Of a DNA stretch of 64,000 nt, positions 15,426 through 51,113 are shown piece by piece. This stretch comes from Escherichia phage 132: the sequence record MZ417521. One strand, 5' to 3'. Position 1 is the first letter of the stretch. Each line of letters begins with the position of its first letter. A program made the position numbers and the translations under genes. The notes beneath the pieces were generated by a model. That model was given only the letters and a program-made list of their open reading frames with translations. It did no database searches and was not told the DNA's origin.

Positions 15426-15944
15426 TTAATAACCTCGGTCTTGACGAGCGAAGTTTTCAGCATTCTTCAGATAATAAAGTTTAAAGATTTCTTCAGCAGT
15501 AAGGCCGAGACCTTGGAACATGTTCAGAACGAAATGAAGAATATCAATCATTTCGAATTTAATTTCCAACTGGTCTTGTGGAGACAAATCAGTAATCAGA
15601 GTTTCACGACGTTCACCATGCTGCGACTTCCAAGGCTTCCATACAGCAGATGCATCTTTTTCGCCATTGCTCATACCACCAAGAGATGTCAGAAGTTCAC
15701 GGAATTCATCGTCAATATAATCTTTCTGATTACGCAGCCAATCGACAACTTCACCTGCAGTAGCCAAATCATCAGGATGACGGTTATATTCAGGTTTATC
15801 TTTAGCTAAACGAACCTGCAAAGATTTCTGCATATCAAGCATAACTTGCAGTGGGTCTTTTTCGTCACCGAGAATATCCCAGTATTCATTTTGAGCTTTA
15901 TCAGCGCCTTCGATCAGTTGCGAACATTCATTAAAGTAAGCCAT
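15426..15944 (-). CDS. 56: dCTP pyrophosphatase (dCTPase/dUTPase, MazG-like), 172 aa
   Basis: track ORF has a 31-codon upstream extension; ATG at 15942-15944 preceded by AGGA gives the T4 gp56 length. Confidence 0.8.
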   Translation of the reverse strand: MAYFNECSQLIEGADKAQNEYWDILGDEKDPLQVMLDMQKSLQVRLAKDKPEYNRHPDDLATAGEVVDWLRNQKDYIDDEFRELLTSLGGMSNGEKDASAVWKPWKSQHGERRETLITDLSPQDQLEIKFEMIDILHFVLNMFQGLGLTAEEIFKLYYLKNAENFARQDRGY

Positions 15945-20636: not shown

Positions 20637-20981
20637 TTAAAAGAATTTAAATTTTTTCTTTGACCTTTTATTAAATGCATCTTGCAGTTGCATTGTAATA
20701 CATTTTTCTACATGAGGAGCTAACTCAGCTTTTCTTTCTTGGTCAAGAACAGCAAAGTCCATTACAACCTTTCCATCAACCCAATCCAGTTTAGTTACAT
20801 ACACTATATGTGTAGAACCATCTTCTAGTTTAATGACAATCTCCTGGATAACATTTTCCATAGCTGATTTAATTATCTTAAGAGATTCATTAAAAAGACG
20901 TTCTTTTCTTTCTTCTTCCCCCTCCGAAGAGGGGGATTCATCGATAATTTCTAGATCTAAATCTAAATCATCTTTATTCAT
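20637..20981 (-). CDS. hypothetical protein at the gene 40 position, about 114 aa
   Basis: track start is GTG; ATG at 20979-20981; contains the 20918-20935 GC hairpin in its coding sequence. Confidence 0.45.
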   Translation of the reverse strand: MNKDDLDLDLEIIDESPSSEGEEERKERLFNESLKIIKSAMENVIQEIVIKLEDGSTHIVYVTKLDWVDGKVVMDFAVLDQERKAELAPHVEKCITMQLQDAFNKRSKKKFKFF

Positions 20982-22155
20982 TAAATTCTTCCATATCACT
21001 TAACTGTTCTAGGTCAGTTTCTAAATCAGCAGCTGATTTACTTTTACTTTCTGGAGATTTAAATTTTTCAACCTTTGAGTTAATCAATTCATCAACTTCA
21101 GCTTCAACAATTTCATTACTATCAATAGCACCTAACTGATAAGCACGTTTAATAGCATCTCGGAATGGTTGATGCTTAAATAAAGGACCCCAGAATGTAG
21201 TGCAGTTAGTATCTTTTGCACGCCAAGATTTTTCTTCGCGAATCATCTCGCCGGTTTCTTCGTCAAGAAATTCACGAGCATACCAGCCATTTTTAGGTTT
21301 TACTACAAATCCTAATTCTAGAGCCATATCTAACAATCCAGAATAAGGATCGATACCGCCGTCAAATTTAACATCAATAAAGAATTTACTTTTTTCTTTA
21401 ACGGTACGAGATTTTTCTACATTTAGAACAAATTGATACCCCTGAAGATCAGAACCATCTTTAATCTGACGTTTACCGATAATGAATACAGTATCAGCCG
21501 AATACATTACACCTGTACCGCCTGTCATTACGGTTTTGCTAAACATTTCAATTGTTTCAATTGTATGGTTAACCGCAACACATGGAATATTTTTAATGCT
21601 AAAATAAGGAGTAACAATACGGAATAATGACTTCAGTGATTTAGCACGAGTCATATCTGCCACAGATTTTTCATTCAAGGCATCTTCTGTTTCTTTCTTA
21701 GAAGCCATATTACCGATTGAGTCGATGAATACAATAACTTTTTCACCGCGCTCAATAGCTTCAAGCTGATTCACCATATCAATTTTCAGCTGTTCAACTG
21801 ACTGGATTGGCGTATGAATTACACGTTCCGGGTCAACTCCCATGGATCGCAAATAAGCTGGAGTAATACCAAATTCGCTATCATAGAATAGACAAACCGC
21901 GTCAGGATATTTGTTCAAATATGCCGCAACCATAGTCAAAGACATATTTGATTTAAAGTGTTTAGAAGGCCCTGCGAAAATAGTTAAACCAGACTGCATA
22001 CCGCCATCAATCGCACCAGAAATAGCAATATTAAGCATTGGGATTTTTGTACGGATTACATCCTTTTCATTAAAGAATTTAGATGTAGTCAGTTCAGCAG
22101 TCATTTTAGAAGTGGAAGCTTTAATCAAACGGGATTTTAAATCTGCAATAGACAT
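20974..22155 (-). CDS. uvsX: UvsX recombinase (RecA-like), 393 aa
   Basis: Walker A GPSKHFKS; C-terminal two thirds match recalled T4 UvsX, N-terminus diverged. Confidence 0.92.
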   Translation of the reverse strand: MSIADLKSRLIKASTSKMTAELTTSKFFNEKDVIRTKIPMLNIAISGAIDGGMQSGLTIFAGPSKHFKSNMSLTMVAAYLNKYPDAVCLFYDSEFGITPAYLRSMGVDPERVIHTPIQSVEQLKIDMVNQLEAIERGEKVIVFIDSIGNMASKKETEDALNEKSVADMTRAKSLKSLFRIVTPYFSIKNIPCVAVNHTIETIEMFSKTVMTGGTGVMYSADTVFIIGKRQIKDGSDLQGYQFVLNVEKSRTVKEKSKFFIDVKFDGGIDPYSGLLDMALELGFVVKPKNGWYAREFLDEETGEMIREEKSWRAKDTNCTTFWGPLFKHQPFRDAIKRAYQLGAIDSNEIVEAEVDELINSKVEKFKSPESKSKSAADLETDLEQLSDMEEFNE

Positions 22156-22232
22156 TCATTTTTTCCATAGGCATCATTATATTTTCCTCACTGGTTAAAG
22201 ATAGAGTAATTATAACACAATAAATTTAGGCA

Positions 22233-23075
22233 TTAATCAACTGCTATTGGATGAATAGCATTAAACTTATAAAATGCTTCTGATTTTTCTTTACGCGAAA
22301 CACACATGCGAAGAACCTTTAATGGCTCGTCTTCTTCACCCAACGATTTTCGTTTTTCAATATTCGATGTTTTCCAACGAGCTTGCTCTGGAAACTCTCT
22401 ATTGATTTGCTCAAGCGCTCTATTATGTTTAGAATTACTACGAATTGAACTACACCCGCCAGGAGCTTGTGCTTTTCCAGATACAACCAGATATTTGAAC
22501 AAGGCCAAATGCGGATAACCTTGATTAATTAAATTGAGAAATGCATACATATCTTCGCATAAATCAATTTTTCCATACCCAATTTGTTCTGTCGTAAGTT
22601 TTCCAAGGTCATACCATGTATTCGTGAATCCATATGAATTTTCACGATAATTACCCCAAGATGAAGTAATTTTAAAAATTGGTAGACGAGCATGGCCATG
22701 ATAATACCCACAATCCATGGCATCTTCGACGTATTGAATCAATTCATAGAACTGTTCACGGGTCAATTGATTGACTTTATCCACACAACGACGGTCATCT
22801 CTTTTTCGCATTGAACTCATACGAATAGTAGTATCATCGTCAATCATCCAGATTCGTTGACCTGCATACATATCAGTAATTGCTTTACGAGTTCCAGCAA
22901 TTCCATTAACACCATCAGGAATAGTTATAATTTTAGCTCTAGACCCATAAGCATCATTATAAGCTTTTTCTTCGTGTTCACGCACTACAATATGAGGTTC
23001 ATAATTAGTCGGAAACATATCAAGGGCAGAAACTGCCCCTACACGTTGATAGCTCGGAATTACGAATTGAATCAT
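22233..23075 (-). CDS. putative DNA glycosyltransferase (DxD motif), about 280 aa, at the T4 beta-gt locus
   Basis: MIDDDT DxD-type motif; ATG at 23073-23075 forms an ATGA overlap with gene 42 stop; shorter than and dissimilar to T4 beta-gt. Confidence 0.45.
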   Translation of the reverse strand: MIQFVIPSYQRVGAVSALDMFPTNYEPHIVVREHEEKAYNDAYGSRAKIITIPDGVNGIAGTRKAITDMYAGQRIWMIDDDTTIRMSSMRKRDDRRCVDKVNQLTREQFYELIQYVEDAMDCGYYHGHARLPIFKITSSWGNYRENSYGFTNTWYDLGKLTTEQIGYGKIDLCEDMYAFLNLINQGYPHLALFKYLVVSGKAQAPGGCSSIRSNSKHNRALEQINREFPEQARWKTSNIEKRKSLGEEDEPLKVLRMCVSRKEKSEAFYKFNAIHPIAVD

Positions 23076-23812
23076 TTCCACTCACCGTTATAATCTTTTT
23101 TCACAATATGAGTTTCGCCAGTATTCCACCAATGATCAACCAAGTAAAAATGACGAGAATATACATGAAGACTTCCAACATTCCATATAATAGAACCTGC
23201 TTTATACTTACGAGTTGAATCGCCTGCATTCAAATCAGATACTAATTTATCTAATACGTATTTTTGCCATGCATAATCATTACGGAATCCGAAGACCACG
23301 TCATTTGAGCGCATGCTTACTACTGCATTGACTTTCTTATCACGAATCAGGTACTGTACTGTATTAGTACACATGAAATCTGACATACCATCTTTATTGT
23401 AGTCAAATTGCATGGATGGACGAGTATAAATCATGATACCACGTCGAGAATCAGGATTTTGACCAAGTTCAGCTAAACACATATCATACTGGGCATAGTT
23501 ATCTTCTGACCAAATAGCCCAGCCATAATTCGAGTTAATTTCGCCTTTAGAAGATGCTACCTGCTGCCAAATCTTTGGTGTTTCACCTGGAATATCTTTA
23601 ACAAACAGACTTTGAGACTTGTACCATTCAAGTTCACGCTGAATGTATTCATCATTAAGAGCGCCAAAAATAAACGGTTCATCTGCTACAAATGATGCGC
23701 CAATAATTTCAATAGTTTTAACGCCAGTTTTATCAACTACGAAATCTTTTTCTTTTAATGCAAGCCCCAAATGAAGACGGATTTCTTCAACTGTCATAGA
23801 GTCACTAATCAT
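23072..23812 (-). CDS. 42: dCMP hydroxymethylase, 246 aa
   Basis: thymidylate-synthase-like fold; same length as T4 gp42; position between the glycosyltransferase and imm. Confidence 0.85.
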   Translation of the reverse strand: MISDSMTVEEIRLHLGLALKEKDFVVDKTGVKTIEIIGASFVADEPFIFGALNDEYIQRELEWYKSQSLFVKDIPGETPKIWQQVASSKGEINSNYGWAIWSEDNYAQYDMCLAELGQNPDSRRGIMIYTRPSMQFDYNKDGMSDFMCTNTVQYLIRDKKVNAVVSMRSNDVVFGFRNDYAWQKYVLDKLVSDLNAGDSTRKYKAGSIIWNVGSLHVYSRHFYLVDHWWNTGETHIVKKDYNGEWK

Positions 23813-23819
23813 TTAAACC

Positions 23820-23969
23820 TCAATTGATACATTCATATTTAACTTGTAACAGTAATAAACCCCAACCTAAAATAATAGTTGGAATCATAAGAGGAACCGT
23901 TACACTATAGTATATACTTATTATAATCATCAAGATTAAAAGCAACACTGTTATAATTTTGCTTTTCAT
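23820..23969 (-). CDS. small hydrophobic peptide, 49 aa; below the ORF-track cutoff
   Basis: ATG at 23967-23969 in an ATGA overlap with imm stop; fills the 42-imm gap; hand-translated. Confidence 0.3.
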   Translation of the reverse strand: MKSKIITVLLLILMIIISIYYSVTVPLMIPTIILGWGLLLLQVKYECIN

Positions 23970-24217
23970 TCCTTCTCTCTGATGATAATTACCTGATTTG
24001 GTTGTGCAGACTTTTTAGTTTCACCAGCAATTGACCAAATAAATGTAATAAACCAACCAATAATTGACCAGTTAAACAGTAAAGATGTGAAAAAGATTCC
24101 TACTGTCGATTTTGACCCACGCATCAAGGCGATAAACCATGGAAGCATGTATATAATAATAGCCAACACACCTGAAACTAAAACCATAAAAATTGAACCT
24201 GCTACTAAAGTTTCCAT
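23966..24217 (-). CDS. imm: immunity (superinfection exclusion) membrane protein Imm, 83 aa
   Basis: two hydrophobic helices; T4 Imm length and position between 42 and 43. Confidence 0.6.
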   Translation of the reverse strand: METLVAGSIFMVLVSGVLAIIIYMLPWFIALMRGSKSTVGIFFTSLLFNWSIIGWFITFIWSIAGETKKSAQPNQVIIIREKE

Positions 24218-24224
24218 GTTTTCC

Positions 24225-24605
24225 TCACTTAGTCAAATTTTTTACACATGAATTATAAGAATTCACTACATACTCCATCGGAGCATTTTTACCGGTACGC
24301 CACTGGTAATTATTAGCCCAATTAGCCCAAAGCTCGGCGCAGTAGTTTTCAATTTTTTCTTCGCGTGTAATTACATCCGAATTACGATATGCTTGAGCAG
24401 ATTCATCTGGACGAATAGCTTCGTCAAAATTCGCCTGCATTTGTTCTACTGTCTGTTTTGGAGCTTCTTTATAACACTTGACATTAGGATTATAAAACTT
24501 GCTTGAACAGTTTACAATTTTTCCTACATCAGACTGATTTACTACCGGTCCTTGAGCTACACAGCCAGTAAGACCTAATGCAATAACCAAAATAGCGATT
24601 TTCAT
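24225..24605 (-). CDS. putative lipoprotein, about 126 aa
   Basis: track start is TTG; ATG at 24603-24605 behind the conserved PeS leader GGAGAATGAA; signal peptide with lipobox LTGC. Confidence 0.5.
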   Translation of the reverse strand: MKIAILVIALGLTGCVAQGPVVNQSDVGKIVNCSSKFYNPNVKCYKEAPKQTVEQMQANFDEAIRPDESAQAYRNSDVITREEKIENYCAELWANWANNYQWRTGKNAPMEYVVNSYNSCVKNLTK

Positions 24606-24630
24606 TTCATTCTCCAAATCTGTATCCGTA

Positions 24631-24672
24631 GTTGATAGTTGTATAGTACCACGGAAGAACAGGGATGTAAAC
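24631..24672 (-). promoter_or_regulatory. PeS-like early promoter cassette (GTTTAC-N18-TACTAT plus conserved leader)
   Basis: gtaaac 24667-24672, atagta 24643-24648; 20-bp block gttgatagttgtatagtacc (24631-24650) recurs at 49965, 52101 and, shortened, 55691. Confidence 0.55.
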
Positions 24673-24755
24673 AGTTTTGTGAAAAAATTTTTAATGAATT
24701 CAAAGGGTCCAGAATCATCTGTTTTTCATAAGTATAGATTTATATTACTTGTATG

Positions 24756-24776
24756 AAAAAGGGACCCGGAGGTCCC
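24756..24776 (-). terminator. intrinsic terminator downstream of gene 43 (gggacc-UCCG-ggtccc plus U-run)
   Basis: gggacccggaggtccc at 24761-24776 preceded on plus strand by aaaaa. Confidence 0.7.
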
Positions 24777-24789
24777 TAGATTTATTCTA

Positions 24790-27486
24790 TCAGCCAAACA
24801 GGAAGTCTAACGAAGCTTTTTCTTCATAGTCCATGCCAGCCGATTCACACATACCCGCAAGCGGTTTAACAAACGATTTTTGGAACAAAGTTGAGTAGTC
24901 AATCCAAGACAATACGTCAGAACGAATTTCTTTTGGAAGTTCTGTACCCGACGGCCAAGCAATGCACTTGTCGCCAAATGGATTTCCTTCACGTAATGGA
25001 AGAACCATTACCTTATTTCCATCCAAAATTGGAGCTACACCTAGACCGCTAACAGCTCGACGATAAGTTAGCACACCACGAATATGGAACGGGCATTTAA
25101 ATCCTGGCCAACCTTTATCATCATATTTCGCTATATCGTTCGCAGTTTTTACTTCAGCAATAACTTTATAGTCAAGTTGACGATATTCTTTCTCGAAGTT
25201 CTTGTAGTATTCTTGGACAGACTCTTCGCCTTCCTGAAGAATACGACGAATACTTTCTTCGAGAGCTTCTTGTACTGCTTTTGGTGTTGAACTCTGCTGA
25301 GTTTCCATACCCATGATTTTTAGATGCGGTTCAGCAAATCGCTTATCTTCCATATCATAAACGTTTAGAGCATAACGTTTTTTCGCTTTCCAAAATCCAC
25401 CAACACCCTTTGAACCAAGCGGAGGGCAAGAAATAGCTTCACGGTCCATATGCATCAGATGCTCGCGGTTATTCATATAATCACATAACTCACGATATGC
25501 AACATCAATCATAGGTTCCATCTTTTTCTTACCAAACTGATTCATGAATTCAACTAAATCATTTTGTTCTTTAAAGCGGTCAAGACCTACTTTTTCAATA
25601 ACTTTATCTACACAGACATATACCGAATCAGTATCACCCGCTGCGATGAAATCTTCACCATCAGTTCCACACACCTTATTCAGGTATTCATTAATTTTAC
25701 GAGCAATCCACTGAATACCAACTTGACCAAAAATTGTGATAGCAGTAGCATTTCGCAAATCATAGTAGCGGAAATGAATATTACCAAGAGCACCATAAAG
25801 ACTGTTAATAAGAATTTTACGGTTCAGCTGATTTGTGTTAGCAAGTGTAGCTGCTTTTTCACATTCTTCGATCAGACTATTAAGAACAGATTCAGTGTAA
25901 TTCGATAATTCATTTAAGAAATCATCATTGAACTTAACATATCGTTCAACTTCCGGTTTAGTTGAGCAAGACCCTGCGCCTTTCATAATAATCTTTTTAA
26001 TAGCTTCGGCATTCATTTCTTCAGCGAACATTTTCTTTTTCCAATCTTTACGCTGGAAAAATACTTTAGCAATTTCCTTTGGAATGATACCTTCTTGATG
26101 CTTATCATACATCCATCCATTCGGAGAACAAGAATATTCATCACTCGGTTTAGGAGCTGTTCCTGCGATATATTCATGAATTGGATGAACTTTAAACTGA
26201 CCACGAATAGTCTCAGGACTAATATTAACCTGACGAATAATGCTCGGATACAGAGACGTCAAGTCAAAACTCATAATATATCGACGAGCAATTGGTTTAG
26301 GTTCAAATACAAATGCACCCGGAAAACTTTGTTTAACGTGCGAACCTTGTTGAGGAATAACCTTATGTTCACCTTTCAATGAGTTAAAAATAATAGCATC
26401 CCAAGTTTTAATAGGACTCATTACACCAGAAAAAGGCATTTTAGCGTAATAAGACATACTTAAAACTAGATCGATAAACCCACGAATTTTATCAATTGCT
26501 TGAACTGATTCTACGTCAATGATGTTATAACTAATGTATCGTTGATGATTAGTCTCACGAAGTTTATTAATAGGACCGTCGTATGGCAATTTACCTTTTT
26601 TGGTTTCATGTTGAGCAACTGATTCCAAAGAGAATGATGGCAAATTAGTAAATGCGAATTTCTTGTACAAATCTAAATAATCAAGAATAGATACGCCATC
26701 AATAGAATAAATTTCTTTGCTACCGTACATATTTTGAATTAGTTTAGATTTTACTCGACCGATTGGAGAGAAGCGTTTCATACTGCGTTCGCCCAGAACC
26801 ATTTTAACACGATTCATGATATACGGAACGTCAAATCCCTCAATATTCCAACCGGTAAAAATAGCAGGTCGTTTCTGTTCCCAGAGATTAATATATTCCA
26901 TGAGCATATCACGCTCATTATCAAATGGCATATAAATTACTCGGTCAAGAATTTCTTGAGGAACTTCATCACCACCTTCACAGTCAAGTTTAGCAGCTAA
27001 CTTTGCATCCCATTTTGATACTGAACCGTACATTGAATTCAACAAATCAAAGACGTAAAAACGGTCGTCAATTGAATCATAATGAGTGATAGCATCAATT
27101 TCATATTCTGCTTTCATTGGGTCAGGAAATTTATCACCAGTAACCTCAATGTCGCAGTTAGCTACACGAACAAATTTTCGGTCATAAACAATTTCTGAAC
27201 CATATGTATCACTGATATAAGCGAGTTTAAAATCGTTCATACCAAGAGCTTCGAGACCGATGTCTTCCATTCGTTTCATCCAATCTCGGGCATCTTTCAT
27301 TGATGGAAATTTTTGAGGAGCGCAATTTTTACCATAAATGTCTTTGTATTTTGACTCTTCCTTACAATGCCTAAACATAGTCGGAAGATATTCTACTTCA
27401 CGAGTACGTTCCTTTCCGTTTTCATCAATATAACGTTCAACAATATTATTTCCGACTGTTTCGATAGAGATATAAAATTCTTTCAT
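24790..27486 (-). CDS. 43: DNA polymerase gp43 (family B), 898 aa
   Basis: full-length match to recalled T4 gp43 (MKEFYISIETVGNNIVERYIDENGKERTREVEYLP...); exonuclease and polymerase motifs (DIE, YGDTDS). Confidence 0.97.
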   Translation of the reverse strand: MKEFYISIETVGNNIVERYIDENGKERTREVEYLPTMFRHCKEESKYKDIYGKNCAPQKFPSMKDARDWMKRMEDIGLEALGMNDFKLAYISDTYGSEIVYDRKFVRVANCDIEVTGDKFPDPMKAEYEIDAITHYDSIDDRFYVFDLLNSMYGSVSKWDAKLAAKLDCEGGDEVPQEILDRVIYMPFDNERDMLMEYINLWEQKRPAIFTGWNIEGFDVPYIMNRVKMVLGERSMKRFSPIGRVKSKLIQNMYGSKEIYSIDGVSILDYLDLYKKFAFTNLPSFSLESVAQHETKKGKLPYDGPINKLRETNHQRYISYNIIDVESVQAIDKIRGFIDLVLSMSYYAKMPFSGVMSPIKTWDAIIFNSLKGEHKVIPQQGSHVKQSFPGAFVFEPKPIARRYIMSFDLTSLYPSIIRQVNISPETIRGQFKVHPIHEYIAGTAPKPSDEYSCSPNGWMYDKHQEGIIPKEIAKVFFQRKDWKKKMFAEEMNAEAIKKIIMKGAGSCSTKPEVERYVKFNDDFLNELSNYTESVLNSLIEECEKAATLANTNQLNRKILINSLYGALGNIHFRYYDLRNATAITIFGQVGIQWIARKINEYLNKVCGTDGEDFIAAGDTDSVYVCVDKVIEKVGLDRFKEQNDLVEFMNQFGKKKMEPMIDVAYRELCDYMNNREHLMHMDREAISCPPLGSKGVGGFWKAKKRYALNVYDMEDKRFAEPHLKIMGMETQQSSTPKAVQEALEESIRRILQEGEESVQEYYKNFEKEYRQLDYKVIAEVKTANDIAKYDDKGWPGFKCPFHIRGVLTYRRAVSGLGVAPILDGNKVMVLPLREGNPFGDKCIAWPSGTELPKEIRSDVLSWIDYSTLFQKSFVKPLAGMCESAGMDYEEKASLDFLFG

Positions 27487-34201: not shown

Positions 34202-34219
34202 AAAGGGCCGAAGCCCTTT
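34202..34219 (-). terminator. GC tetraloop hairpin overlapping the alpha-gt stop codon
   Basis: aaagggccgaagcccttt at 34202-34219; same sequence as the hairpin at 29492. Confidence 0.35.
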
Positions 34220-35420
34220 ATTTTGTAATAATGTCAAACTGTTCTTTAAAGCAGAAGCTTGAATCTTGATGCTGATACAAAAATTCATAAGCTTTTTCAC
34301 GTTCACGGTCATAAAGAGCTCGGTCAGATGACAGTTCTTTAATACGTTCAAATGTTGATTCCATGTCATTTTCATCAAACCAAACGATACCGCTATCATG
34401 AGAAATTAATGGAGTATTATCAACACGGAATTTTAAATTTTCGCCCGTAGATTTCCAAAATACCGGAATTGTTCCACATGCACCAAGCTCGAGATGAGTG
34501 TATTCTAAAGAACGCTGTAGATATTTTTTGTCCAACTTACTCAGCTGATAACCAAATCCGGATTTACTCATGCGTTCAAGCATTTCGCTATTTACATAAC
34601 GGTCGAGAATTTGCGTTGGCAAATTAGGAGCAATTTTAATTTGGTCTACTTGATGAAGACGATAATACTCGTATGGAATTCCTTTTTCTTTAATAGGAAT
34701 GAACGCTGGAGAACGTTCCAGACCTTCCATAATAGTACTTAGTCCTGCAGGTTTAAGATGTTTTTCGTGAAAATCAAACATCTGATAAAAGCCTTTCCAT
34801 GTAGTAGTACGACCAATCCAACGGTTGATATTCATGTTAATTTCAGAAACATCTTTCCAGTAGGTTGATCGAACCTTCGCAATATCCATAGGAGGCTGGA
34901 AGTTATATACGGTCGGTGCTTCTTCAATATCATCAAACAGAGAAACTGTTTCTGGATACCATTCTTTCATTAAAACTTTATTAAAATCACCATTATCAGA
35001 ATGGCTAAAAATAACATCAGCTCGACGAACAGTTTCTTCTAATCCCAAATTTCGGCGTAAAGAAAGAGAAGAATGGTCATGCTGATAAACTACAACACGA
35101 ACCGAAGGTTTAATATTATCAATAATTTTTTTATAGTTATTAATTGTGTCTTCTTCAACTGAAGTAGCAGGAACTGAATTGATAATTAGAATATCACAAT
35201 CATTTACCAACTTAAGTGTTTTATCGTATTCTTTTGCCAATAAAACCGGAATTGAAAATGACTTATAATCATGTGCGCAATTACGAGTAAATGATTTATC
35301 TTTAGCATAAACCAAAGTTACTTCATGACCATTTTTAATAAACCAATCACGTTGCTCAAGAGAAAATTTAGTTACACCGCAACCTTCAAGACCTCGAGCC
35401 ATAAAAATACATACTTTCAT
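34218..35420 (-). CDS. a-gt: DNA alpha-glucosyltransferase, 400 aa
   Basis: 400 aa with close match to recalled T4 alpha-gt (..CIFMARGLEGCGVTKFSLEQRDWFIKNGHEVTLVYAKDKSFTR..). Confidence 0.8.
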   Translation of the reverse strand: MKVCIFMARGLEGCGVTKFSLEQRDWFIKNGHEVTLVYAKDKSFTRNCAHDYKSFSIPVLLAKEYDKTLKLVNDCDILIINSVPATSVEEDTINNYKKIIDNIKPSVRVVVYQHDHSSLSLRRNLGLEETVRRADVIFSHSDNGDFNKVLMKEWYPETVSLFDDIEEAPTVYNFQPPMDIAKVRSTYWKDVSEINMNINRWIGRTTTWKGFYQMFDFHEKHLKPAGLSTIMEGLERSPAFIPIKEKGIPYEYYRLHQVDQIKIAPNLPTQILDRYVNSEMLERMSKSGFGYQLSKLDKKYLQRSLEYTHLELGACGTIPVFWKSTGENLKFRVDNTPLISHDSGIVWFDENDMESTFERIKELSSDRALYDREREKAYEFLYQHQDSSFCFKEQFDIITK

Positions 35421-39453: not shown

Positions 39454-39924
39454 TTAATCATGTTTCCACACCCCATCAGTATTTGACCAAAGCCGCTGAT
39501 TATCTGATCCTCGCCACAGCTTTTTAGTCGGAAGATTTTTCTTATACTTCCCATCAATAATAACATCAACATATTTAAGCATTTCTAGTTGTTTAATATC
39601 TTCAAACTTATATCCTGTCCACAACCAAATGCTTTTATTGGGATAAAGATTTTTTACTGTTTGAACGATGCAATGAATAACATCTCGGTTATCAGGATAG
39701 AGAGGGTCACCTCCGGTTATAGTCAATCCTTCTATATAATCATTATTCAAACATTCAATCAATTGTTCTAGTGTTTCACCAGTGAATGGAATACCATTTC
39801 TAGCATTCCATGTTGATTTATTATAACACCCTTCACATTTATGCAAACAACCTGTAACGAAAAGAACGACCCTGCATCCAGGACCATTAACAAAGCAGCA
39901 CGGGTATATTCTGTCATAATTCAT
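39454..39924 (-). CDS. nrdG: anaerobic ribonucleotide reductase activating protein NrdG (radical SAM)
   Basis: CxxxCxxC cluster motif (CLHKCEGC); start set to ATG 39922-39924; position next to nrdD. Confidence 0.8.
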   Translation of the reverse strand: MNYDRIYPCCFVNGPGCRVVLFVTGCLHKCEGCYNKSTWNARNGIPFTGETLEQLIECLNNDYIEGLTITGGDPLYPDNRDVIHCIVQTVKNLYPNKSIWLWTGYKFEDIKQLEMLKYVDVIIDGKYKKNLPTKKLWRGSDNQRLWSNTDGVWKHD

Positions 39925-40751
39925 AATAATATCCAATTTTTCCAAGCTTCATCAGTAGAATTACAGCGTTTTAGTATAAGATGTCTAGAAACTTTTATGG
40001 CATTTGAGCACTTTTTAATTGAATCATATTTAATACCGTCAACTGAAACGGTTTTGCTAGTTGGAGAAATTTTTCCATACATTGGATTTTTTGAACCAAC
40101 TTGAAGTCCTTTTAAAGCTTTTGAAAGCTTTTGTCTAGATTCCAATGACATGGGAGAATTCTTTTTACCTTCAATAATTCGCTTGCGATGAAGTTCGCGT
40201 TCTTCTTCACTCAAAGAATTGTAATATTTTTTAACACCGTTTGATATAGATAATTTATCTTTCTCAGACCGCTCTCCAGCTAATTTACTTCTAACATCTT
40301 TTCGCTTCATAGCTATGCTTACGGCTTTATTTAAATTTGCTTGATGCTCTGGCGTACGTTTATATTTCTTTAAAGCACGTGAAATAGCTATTTTAGTTTC
40401 TTCTGTTCTCTTTTTACCTTTATTTGCTAAACTATTTTTGTGGCGATGTTCAAGTGTCTGTTCATAAGCAGTTCCACCTTTTCCACCGGGTTTAATATTA
40501 TATGTATTTTCTTTTAGACAATACTCTTCGGTTACAAGTTCAGCTTCTTTATCATACATTTGTTTTTCATTATCAAAAACATGTAAAATTTCTTTATTAA
40601 AATTTTTTCTACCATATTTTAATAAAGCGGCACGAATCAATGTTCCTGATCCCATATAACCGTCATTTATGTTATCGGTGCTATGCGCACCGATATATTC
40701 CTTTGAATTAATTATATTTGTTATTTTATAAATTATATAATACCTATGCAT
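39921..40751 (-). CDS. free-standing GIY-YIG homing endonuclease (seg-like), 276 aa
   Basis: N-terminal GIY-YIG motif (YIIYKITN...EYIGAHS); basic C-terminal repeats typical of NUMOD-type DNA-binding tails; wedged between nrdG and nrdD with overlaps on both sides. Confidence 0.75.
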   Translation of the reverse strand: MHRYYIIYKITNIINSKEYIGAHSTDNINDGYMGSGTLIRAALLKYGRKNFNKEILHVFDNEKQMYDKEAELVTEEYCLKENTYNIKPGGKGGTAYEQTLEHRHKNSLANKGKKRTEETKIAISRALKKYKRTPEHQANLNKAVSIAMKRKDVRSKLAGERSEKDKLSISNGVKKYYNSLSEEERELHRKRIIEGKKNSPMSLESRQKLSKALKGLQVGSKNPMYGKISPTSKTVSVDGIKYDSIKKCSNAIKVSRHLILKRCNSTDEAWKNWILL

Positions 40752-42561
40752 GTTTTACTCGTTTTACCATTTCTTTCATTTTACCTAAATTCCATGGAAC
40801 AACGCTAGGAGTTCCAAGATATCCGCATGTTCTTCTTATGGTGTTCATCTTTTTAGGATCAGTTTCTCCACAAATAGAACAAACAAATCCGTTTTCAGTA
40901 GGAGTCATTTCATGGGTACTTCCGCATGTAAAACATTTATCTACTGGCATATTAACACCAAAATAATCTAAATGTTGTGCAGCATAATCCCATACAGCCT
41001 CAAGACCCTTTAGGTTATTTTTCATATCAGGAAGTTCAACATAAGAAATGTGACCACCTGTCGCAATGAAATGATATGGGGCTTCGCGAGAAATCTTTTC
41101 AAATGGAGTAATATTTTCTTCTACTGAAACGTGGAAACTGTTAGTGTACCAGCCTTTATCGGTAACATCTTTTACACTTCCATATTTTTCGGTATCAAGT
41201 TTACAGAAGCGATAGCACAGGTTTTCAGCAGGAGTAGAATACAAACTAAAAGCAAAACCAGTTCTTTCAGTCCATTGTTTAAGATGAGTATTCATTTTAG
41301 TTAAAATTTCTTGTCCAATATCACGACCAACAAGAATATTCAATTCGTGAATACCAATGTATCCTAGGGACACTGAACTTCTACCGTTTTTAAATAACTC
41401 AATTATGTCATCGTCAGGTTTAAGACGAACCCCGAATGCACCTTCTTGGTAAAGAATAGGAGCAACAGTCGCTTTAACTCCTTTTAAGGAACTAATTCTA
41501 CACATCAATACTTCAAAACATAAATCCATTCGTTCATTGAACAATTCAGTAAATTTCTGTTCATTGAACTGTGTTCCAATATAAGAATCTAACGCAATAC
41601 GAGGAAGATTCAGTGTTACAACACCAAGATTATTACGTCCATCAAGAATTTCATTACCAGTCGAATCTTTCCATACGCCCAAGAAACTACGGCAACCCAT
41701 TGGAGAAACAGGAATAGATGAACCTGTGATAGCTTTATTGTTCTTAGCCGAAATGATGTCAGGATACATTCTTTTGCTTGCACACTCTAGAGCAAGCTGC
41801 TTAATATCATAGTTCGGATCGTCTTTATAAAGATTAACACCTTCTTCAACGAACATAACAAGCTTAGGGAAAATAGGAGTTATCCCATCACGACCGAGAC
41901 CTTTAATGCGATTTTTCAGAATTGCTTTCTGAATCATTCGTTCAGTCCAGTCAGTTCCCGTACCAAATGTAATTGTTACAAAAGGCGTTTGTCCGTTTGA
42001 ACTAAAGAGAGTATTTACTTCATATTCATAAGCTTGGAACGCATCGTATACGTCTTTTTCTGTTTTAGACTGGGCGTAATTCAACGCGTCAGCGATTTGC
42101 CATTTTTCTGCGTCCTCAATATGTTTTGCATAGGTGCGTTTAACATAAGGAGAAAGGACTTTATCTACATTCGCAAAAGTCGTTCCACCATATTGATGGG
42201 AAGCAACCTGTGCAGTAATTTGTGCCATAATTGCAGTAGCAACGCCAATTGATTTAGGAGTTTCAATCTGTGCATTACCGAGCTTAAATCCGTTCTCAAG
42301 CATTCCTTTTAAATCTACTAAACAGCAATTAGTAAATGGAAGAGCAGGGGAATAATCAATATCGTGGAAATGGATAATTCCGCTTTCATGCGCTTTCATA
42401 ATAAAAGACGGGACCATATTTTTGGCAATGTGTTTAGACACAATACCAGCCATAAGGTCCCGTTGAGTTGGAAAAACACGAGAATCTTTATTAGCATTCT
42501 CGTTTAAAAGGTCTTTATTAGTTTTATGAATTAATCCTTCAATTTCTTTTTCAATTGTCAT
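40744..42561 (-). CDS. nrdD: anaerobic ribonucleotide reductase NrdD (glycyl radical enzyme), 605 aa, intronless
   Basis: C-terminal glycyl radical motif RRTCGYLG and zinc ribbon (CFTCGS...CSICG); T4 NrdD length as one ORF. Confidence 0.9.
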   Translation of the reverse strand: MTIEKEIEGLIHKTNKDLLNENANKDSRVFPTQRDLMAGIVSKHIAKNMVPSFIMKAHESGIIHFHDIDYSPALPFTNCCLVDLKGMLENGFKLGNAQIETPKSIGVATAIMAQITAQVASHQYGGTTFANVDKVLSPYVKRTYAKHIEDAEKWQIADALNYAQSKTEKDVYDAFQAYEYEVNTLFSSNGQTPFVTITFGTGTDWTERMIQKAILKNRIKGLGRDGITPIFPKLVMFVEEGVNLYKDDPNYDIKQLALECASKRMYPDIISAKNNKAITGSSIPVSPMGCRSFLGVWKDSTGNEILDGRNNLGVVTLNLPRIALDSYIGTQFNEQKFTELFNERMDLCFEVLMCRISSLKGVKATVAPILYQEGAFGVRLKPDDDIIELFKNGRSSVSLGYIGIHELNILVGRDIGQEILTKMNTHLKQWTERTGFAFSLYSTPAENLCYRFCKLDTEKYGSVKDVTDKGWYTNSFHVSVEENITPFEKISREAPYHFIATGGHISYVELPDMKNNLKGLEAVWDYAAQHLDYFGVNMPVDKCFTCGSTHEMTPTENGFVCSICGETDPKKMNTIRRTCGYLGTPSVVPWNLGKMKEMVKRVKHA

Positions 42562-50393: not shown

Positions 50394-51113
50394 TTAGGAT
50401 TCTTCTAAATGTCTTTTCTGAAAAGTTGATACCATACTACGATACGGTTCATTTGGATACCCGTGTTTTATAGCTTCCTTTGTAAATTTTCTCCATCCAT
50501 ATTTAGTTTCTTTCCAAAGCTCGAATAATTCATCTTCATATTGCCATATAGTTAAATGAGAACGCTTTGCAGCTTTAATTCCATTAATATGCTTTTCTTT
50601 TACTACAGGATTGCTTAGTTTCTTTTTAATAATATTACTAACTTTTCTAACAAAAACTGGGTCCTTATATCGTTGCGAAGTTTTTATTGAAGTGTTTAAT
50701 TTAGCTTCCGGCGTGGATGTGACCTCTTTCATCTTTTTCTTCATATGCTGTATATGATTAGGATTTTTCCATAAATTTATAGAATGCTTTTTGCATTTTA
50801 TCCTAGTTTCATCTGCAACCTTTCCTCCTTCACCCCCGTATGACAGGTTAACACAGTTTTTTCCATATTTCAATTTACCTGCCATGATATATAATATTTC
50901 AGCTTGTACCATTTTATCATAATTATCAAAAACTTCTAAAACCGTTTTTGATAATATGTGGTCATTTGACACTTTTACACGTTCTATATAATTTCCACTA
51001 CCAACATACGAATCATTGATGTTATTAGTTATATGTCGACCATAATAGTATTTCTTAATACCTGTCTTTAAATTTAATATTTCAGTTTTATAGATAGTAA
51101 AATATTTTTTCAT
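50394..51113 (-). CDS. free-standing GIY-YIG-like homing endonuclease, 239 aa
   Basis: N-terminal FTIYKTEI...YYYGRH (GIY-YIG-like with YYG); basic C-terminal half; start ATG overlaps the stop of the AAA+ gene. Confidence 0.6.
   Translation of the reverse strand: MKKYFTIYKTEILNLKTGIKKYYYGRHITNNINDSYVGSGNYIERVKVSNDHILSKTVLEVFDNYDKMVQAEILYIMAGKLKYGKNCVNLSYGGEGGKVADETRIKCKKHSINLWKNPNHIQHMKKKMKEVTSTPEAKLNTSIKTSQRYKDPVFVRKVSNIIKKKLSNPVVKEKHINGIKAAKRSHLTIWQYEDELFELWKETKYGWRKFTKEAIKHGYPNEPYRSMVSTFQKRHLEES

Follow-up and report, generated by a model that had tools for sequence, protein, structure and literature searches.

The 280-residue open reading frame that lies between uvsX and gene 42 of Escherichia phage 132 is in all probability a T2/T6-type beta-glucosyl-HMC-alpha-glucosyltransferase (ba-gt), the enzyme that adds the second glucose, and this assignment gives the best account of the data as a whole. 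The analysis covered a 64,000-nucleotide stretch of the phage sequence (MZ417521), referred to below as the window. Our own analysis shows the identity of the protein, its synteny and fold, the conserved motifs and the pathway genes; the chemistry and the defence phenotypes come from published work on orthologues. The original prediction, made from the letters and an ORF list, had placed a 280-aa ORF with a DxD motif (MIDDDT) at the locus where T4 carries beta-gt, had seen it overlap gene 42 through ATGA and had noted a T4-like alpha-gt elsewhere. The ORF, the overlap itself, the motif (residues 77-82) and the alpha-gt gene were all found, and their positions are collected in Table 1 with those of the other features.

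Table 1. Features of the ba-gt locus and of the hydroxymethylcytosine (hmC) pathway in the window.
Feature	Position	Strand	Details
ba-gt (g-gt / TAGT), very probable beta-glucosyl-HMC-alpha-glucosyltransferase	22233..23075	-	843 nt; 280 aa + TAA (22233-22235); ORF and translation
ATGA overlap, gene 42 stop / ba-gt start	23072..23075	-	TGA 23072-23074, ATG 23073-23075
R11 codon (CGT), beta1-alpha1 loop	23043..23045	-	R11 in 83/83; His only in phage T2
DxD codons D79-D80-D81, putative metal/UDP-sugar binding motif	22833..22841	-	D79 81/83, D80 83/83, D81 82/83; directly after strand beta4 (74-78)
E174-D175 codons ('CED', start of helix 174-184)	22551..22556	-	D175 83/83, E174 71/83
Gene 42, dCMP hydroxymethylase (makes hm-dCMP)	23072..23812	-	246 aa, 96% identical to T4 gp42; PF00303; upstream of ba-gt
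uvsX	20974..22155	-	393 aa, 91% identical to T4 UvsX; downstream of ba-gt, 77-bp spacer
a-gt, DNA alpha-glucosyltransferase (expected to make the acceptor of ba-gt)	34218..35420	-	400 aa, 91% identical to T4 a-gt; PF11440, E = 2.4e-236
Gene 56, dCTPase/dUTPase (excludes dCTP)	15426..15944	-	phrog_173, E = 3.1e-46; 72% identical to T6 gp56

The program-made ORF list starts the gene at a GTG (23081) and gives it 282 residues. We place the true start at the ATG at 23075, because the homologues all open with MIQFVIPSY and are annotated as 843 nt. On the minus strand the junction of gene 42 and ba-gt reads GGTGAGTGGAAATGATTCAA, and a Shine-Dalgarno-like GGTGA is found 5 nt upstream of the ba-gt ATG. 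An identical 4-nt ATGA overlap is annotated in T2, T6 (AP018814), Geo, Solly, QOTSP and NR1. Judged from this arrangement, translation of ba-gt is likely to be coupled to that of gene 42 through the ATGA. Scans of positions 21900-24900 gave 15 promoter-like sites (12.2 in shuffled sequence) and three terminator-like sites (1.5 in shuffles), neither count being above chance; a terminator-like hairpin (23041-23021) sits within the first codons of ba-gt.

The window protein and that of T2 are 97.9% identical (six of 280 positions differ), and three substitutions separate the window protein from that of T6, besides a stop codon in that T6 record. N24 and Y269 distinguish the window protein from both. 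Its R106 corresponds to H106 of T6, and its R11, N40, G55 and P251 stand where T2 has H11, Y40, D55 and S251. Y269 occurs in none of the seven orthologues compared and falls in an unconserved C-terminal region. This alignment, which had been proposed as a check, bears out the suspected likeness to the second-glucose transferases of T2 and T6, as do two profile matches. One is to phrog_842, 'beta-glucosyl-HMC-alpha-glucosyltransferase' (E = 3.7e-87), and the other is to the Pfam family TAGT (TET-associated glycosyltransferase, PF20691), where residues 4-207 match profile positions 3-205 of 205 with 38.4 bits against a gathering cutoff of 27.5. The E-value of the Pfam match is modest (1.6e-9), and the T-even enzymes are therefore a divergent branch of TAGT. 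The T2/T6 enzymes (named ba-gt, g-gt or ggt; e.g. YP_010067197.1 and XYW65403.1) have 280 residues, occupy the same slot between 42 and uvsX, co-occur with alpha-gt and have all conserved motifs in common with the window copy; the gene is intact in the window but carries a lesion in each of the two public T6 records.

A tblastn search of 50,697 phage records with the window protein found homologues in 688, of which 470 (T2 and T6 among them) have 95-99% identity. The closest record is 98.9% identical and none reaches 100%. Most of these records are annotated as beta-glucosyl-HMC-alpha-glucosyltransferase. T4-type beta-gt, at an identity of at least 90%, is found in 29 phage records, largely T4 and its derivatives. 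The original prediction had implied that the locus is unusual, and these counts do not bear that out: ba-gt between 42 and uvsX is what most Tequatrovirus phages have, and T4 beta-gt is the rare exception. In a published survey the pairing of alpha-GT and beta-GT seen in T4 occurs in only 6 of 753 genomes, the usual combination being alpha-GT or beta-GT together with a TAGT (PMC13216743), and the position of the TAGT gene has been described as syntenic with T4 beta-GT (PMC13390438).

The surroundings of the gene fit this picture. The 9-kb neighbourhood is 97% nucleotide-identical to T6, RB3 and many other Tequatrovirus genomes and has their gene order (43 / imm.1 / imm / 42 / ba-gt / uvsX / 40 / 41); T6, T2 and Geo all have 42 / ba-gt / uvsX in this order. 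The high identity and conserved gene order therefore mark this as an ordinary T6/RB3-like Tequatrovirus locus, and the ORF as the T2/T6 orthologue. Elsewhere in the window, the gene for gp56, part of the core hmC pathway, is a divergent mosaic allele, with 72% identity to T6 against about 97% for the surroundings. About 35 positions distinguish the window a-gt from the alleles of T4, T6 and Geo, to which it is 91% identical, and these differences cluster at residues 47-52 and 254-276. The window a-gt is the commoner of two alleles, present at an identity of at least 99% in 419 phage records, and the a-gt of QOTSP is 99.5% identical to it. The divergent gp56 and the 91% a-gt allele are typical T-even mosaicism.

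No solved relative of ba-gt turned up in a sequence search of the PDB, which returned chance matches only (E > 1), and the fold was therefore examined through a model. A word-indexed homologue search yielded 10 proteins, and an exhaustive profile search of 1.84 billion representatives was needed to collect 934 family members (E <= 1e-3). Conservation was read from an alignment of 83 diverse full-length family representatives (16-76% identity). R11, D80, D175 and G207 are invariant in all 83, and I6, P7, D79, D81, G186, G206 and R212 are nearly so. The AlphaFold2 model built from the family alignment (pLDDT 94.4, pTM 0.92) is a single Rossmann-like alpha/beta/alpha domain. GT-A glycosyltransferases (WrtF, chondroitin polymerase, TarS and TarP) make up most of its best Foldseek matches, with structurally related sugar-nucleotidyltransferases such as RmlA ranked lower. 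As modelled, ba-gt is a GT-A protein with its DxD at the canonical position, unlike the GT-B alpha- and beta-gt of T4. The fold agrees with that of a published AF3 model of the T6 protein, which was described as GT-A and sister to GT2 and was assigned to PF20691 (PMC13216743). The TAGT family, a GT-A family that is sister to CAZy GT2, has the GT-A fold and the DxD in common with the window protein; it differs in that its presumed acceptor is 5hmC itself, whereas the expected acceptor of the window enzyme is a glucose already on the DNA.

The product of the T2 and T6 enzymes has a beta-1,6 linkage and is made from UDP-alpha-glucose. Inversion is therefore needed, in keeping with a GT2-like inverting mechanism. 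If E174-D175 is the counterpart of the (T)ED motif in GT2 enzymes, D175 would be the catalytic base of an inverting GT-A enzyme; the roles that we assign to D79, D81 and D175 follow from conservation and from this analogy.

We propose the following route for the window phage. Gp42 would make hm-dCMP and gp56 would remove dCTP, so that the phage DNA contains 5-hydroxymethylcytosine. Alpha-gt, a retaining GT-B enzyme, would put alpha-glucose on about three-quarters (~75%) of the hmC. The GT-A enzyme ba-gt, expressed from the gene 42 message and probably by stop/start coupling at the ATGA, would bind UDP-glucose via a divalent metal held by D79 and D81. With D175 as general base it would add a second glucose, with inversion, at the 6-OH of the first; the product would be beta-1,6-glucosyl-alpha-glucosyl (gentiobiosyl) hmC. 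Transfer of a beta-1,6 glucose from UDP-glucose to alpha-glucosyl-hmC is supported for the orthologues, and by analogy the window protein would catalyse the same reaction.

The modification pattern of the window phage is accordingly a matter of comparison with its relatives. We predict that it is T6-like, with about 25-35% bare hmC, about 60-70% gentiobiosyl-hmC, little alpha-monoglucosyl-hmC and no beta-glucosyl-hmC, because the relatives that have been measured carry near-identical a-gt and ba-gt and because R11 and the invariant residues are intact. The window protein shows 3-4 residue differences from each of the ba-gt proteins of QOTSP, NR1 and Solly. For these three phages the LC-MS that the original prediction had proposed as a check has been published; it gave about one-third hmdC and about two-thirds alpha-gentiobiosyl-mdC, while alpha-glc-mdC was present as a trace and beta-glc-mdC was absent (PMC13390438). 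The predicted ratio is less certain than the identity of the enzyme, because phages whose gene is intact reach different levels of second glucosylation: T2 reaches 5%, Geo, EL and BGP about 40%, with an intermediate 1:2:2 pattern, and T6 and others about 66-72% (PMC13390438).

That range lends some weight to a different outcome, in which the window enzyme is a T2-like hypomorph, or weakly active, and the DNA is mainly alpha-monoglucosylated with a few percent of gentiobiosyl-hmC. The T2 ORF is intact and yet gives a low level, Geo, EL and BGP are intermediate (PMC13390438), and sequence by itself is an unproven predictor of the level. We consider this outcome improbable. The window protein has R11 and P251, the sole positions that separate T2 from QOTSP, NR1 and Solly; all its invariant residues are intact, it has none of the seven substitutions that are unique to Geo among the orthologues compared, and the start context and ATGA overlap are conserved.

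It is much less likely still that ba-gt is a functional substitute for T4 beta-gt, glucosylating bare hmC directly and so filling the sites that alpha-gt leaves empty. The gene sits at the T4 b-gt position, the Pfam family TAGT takes its name from TET-associated enzymes that presumably act on 5hmC, and some phages with neither alpha-GT nor beta-GT have a solitary TAGT homologue (PMC13216743). However, T2, T6 and the Durham Tequatrovirus phages, whose proteins are near-identical, keep about 25-33% of their hmC unglucosylated and contain no detectable beta-glc-mdC (PMC13390438, PMC11078745). In T6 delta-ba-gt, moreover, alpha-glucosyl-hmC presumably amounts to about 75%, which argues that the enzyme acts on sites that are already alpha-glucosylated (PMC11078745; bioRxiv 10.64898/2026.02.25.707755).

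The comparison with T4 beta-gt itself is clear. BLASTP of ba-gt against the 351-aa T4 protein found no similarity (best E = 2.2), so that there is no full-length alignment, as the original prediction had anticipated. A Pfam search found no PF09198 match in ba-gt, while T4 b-gt itself scores 9.4e-98, and tblastn detected no T4-type beta-gt anywhere in the 64-kb window (best E = 1.3). BLASTP also found no similarity to T4 alpha-gt. Membership of the T4 beta-gt family (PF09198 / GT63) was rejected on the negative BLASTP and Pfam results. Ba-gt and T4 beta-gt (PF09198, GT63, GT-B, PDB 1JG7) both occupy the slot downstream of gene 42, and in general terms both serve to complete hmC hypermodification; by analogy, ba-gt is also expected to use UDP-glucose as donor with an inverting, beta-linked outcome. 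T4 beta-gt differs in being GT-B rather than GT-A, in its 351 rather than 280 residues, and in accepting bare hmC rather than alpha-glucosyl-hmC. T4 b-gt also lies 23 nt from gene 42 and is followed by segA, whereas the window ba-gt overlaps gene 42 and has no segA beside it. The site that segA occupies in T4, between uvsX and b-gt, is empty in the window, and the only SegA-like matches in the window lie away from the uvsX/ba-gt spacer.

Transfer of a sugar other than glucose, such as arabinose in RB69 and other Mosigvirus phages, would give a hypermodification unlike those of T4 and of T2/T6, and although sugar specificity is unreadable from sequence and RB69 had been raised by the original prediction, this can practically be discounted: the protein has 97-99% identity to enzymes from phages with gentiobiose in their DNA, the alignment with RB69 ORF003c found no similarity (BLASTP best E = 1.1), the window locus is without the extra genes that RB69 has between polymerase and uvsX, and Mosigvirus chemistry has been revised to 5-arabinosyl-dC, made by a different pathway (PMC13390438). 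ORF003c is, like ba-gt, a phage DNA sugar transferase that acts on a modified cytosine, but it has 366 residues, is predicted to be GT-B, lies at another locus beside rIIA/gene 39 and transfers another sugar (PMC6024577). Membership of the RB69-type arabinosyltransferases was rejected on the negative BLASTP result against ORF003c.

If the window protein is, as we believe, the T2/T6-type second-glucose enzyme, its product should matter for defence. Deletion of ba-gt leaves T6 with alpha-glucosyl-hmC only and raises its sensitivity to Brig1 (PMC11078745), and BapA frees glucose from T6 delta-g-gt DNA but not from wild-type T6 DNA (bioRxiv 10.64898/2026.02.25.707755). In the window phage, gentiobiosyl-hmC would withstand the Brig1 glycosylase, which excises alpha-glucosyl-hmC, and GmrSD/BrxU-type enzymes would still cut. 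As a discovery this is minor, since the GT-A fold, the product and the role in evading the Brig1 glycosylase have all been published; papers from 2018-2026 already describe the gene, its synteny with T4 beta-gt, the fold, the T6 deletion phenotypes and LC-MS of the relatives. The use of the result lies in annotation: it predicts gentiobiosyl-hmC, not beta-glucosyl-hmC, in the window phage. The predicted modification bears on which type IV enzymes and DNA glycosylases can restrict the phage, on which restriction enzymes will work and on sequencing chemistries.

The alignments also draw attention to phage T2, in which ba-gt has His at the family-invariant Arg11; the window protein has Arg11. The beta1-alpha1 loop of GT-A enzymes, where this residue is located, lines the nucleotide pocket. 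Searched with tblastn, the N-terminal 23-mer of the T2 protein has an exact match in 8 of the 683 phage records with the gene, namely the T2 records and SV76, whose genome is of T2 size. A pattern scan of IMG/VR gave no contig with His11 and five with Arg11, a very small sample. Compared with QOTSP, NR1 and Solly, which are high in gentiobiosyl-hmC, T2 has only two specific changes, R11H and P251S. N40Y and G55D, which T2 has in common with those three phages, were rejected as the cause of its low activity. R11H is thus a candidate, on sequence grounds, for the change that may underlie the 60-year-old difference between T2 and T6 (5% against 72% gentiobiosyl-hmC). We suggest, tentatively and with somewhat more doubt than conviction, that residue 11 is a switch for the extent of di-glucosylation, that the window phage with its Arg11 is of the full-activity T6 type and that the gap between T2 and T6 arises from R11H. 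Were this true, the modification pattern, and hence the sensitivity to Brig1-type glycosylases, would be predictable from sequence. We found no statement of the R11H explanation of the T2/T6 difference in the literature examined.

T6 is the phage that defined gentiobiosyl-hmC, and both independent public T6 genome records have a lesion in ba-gt. In MH550421 a CAG to TAG change places an amber codon at codon 10, and the gene is annotated as 261 aa from M20. In AP018814/NC_054907 an in-frame 3-nt deletion turns MIDDDT into MIDDT, with loss of one Asp of the DxD region. These lesions may be sequencing errors or loss-of-function variants of laboratory stocks.

The names given to the gene in GenBank are confused. 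In the RB3-group records KM606994-KM606999 the GT-A ba-gt carries the gene name 'b-gt', while the true T4-type beta-gt of RB55 (KM607002) is named beta-glucosyl-HMC-alpha-glucosyl-transferase; elsewhere ba-gt appears as 'beta-glucosyltransferase' or 'thymidylate synthase'. Between gene 42 and imm there is a hydrophobic ORF of 49 aa (23820..23969, minus strand; phrog_3610). T2 and Geo conserve this ORF and have it annotated, and it is missing from the annotations of T4 and T6 (MH550421). The window also contains two genes for Seg-like GIY-YIG homing endonucleases, at 39921..40751 and 50394..51113 on the minus strand (phrog_314, E = 3.6e-60 and 1.8e-30). Over 115 aa the first of these has 46% identity to T4 SegA, and its gene overlaps the end of a 605-aa ORF (40744-42561), which from its position we take to be nrdD.
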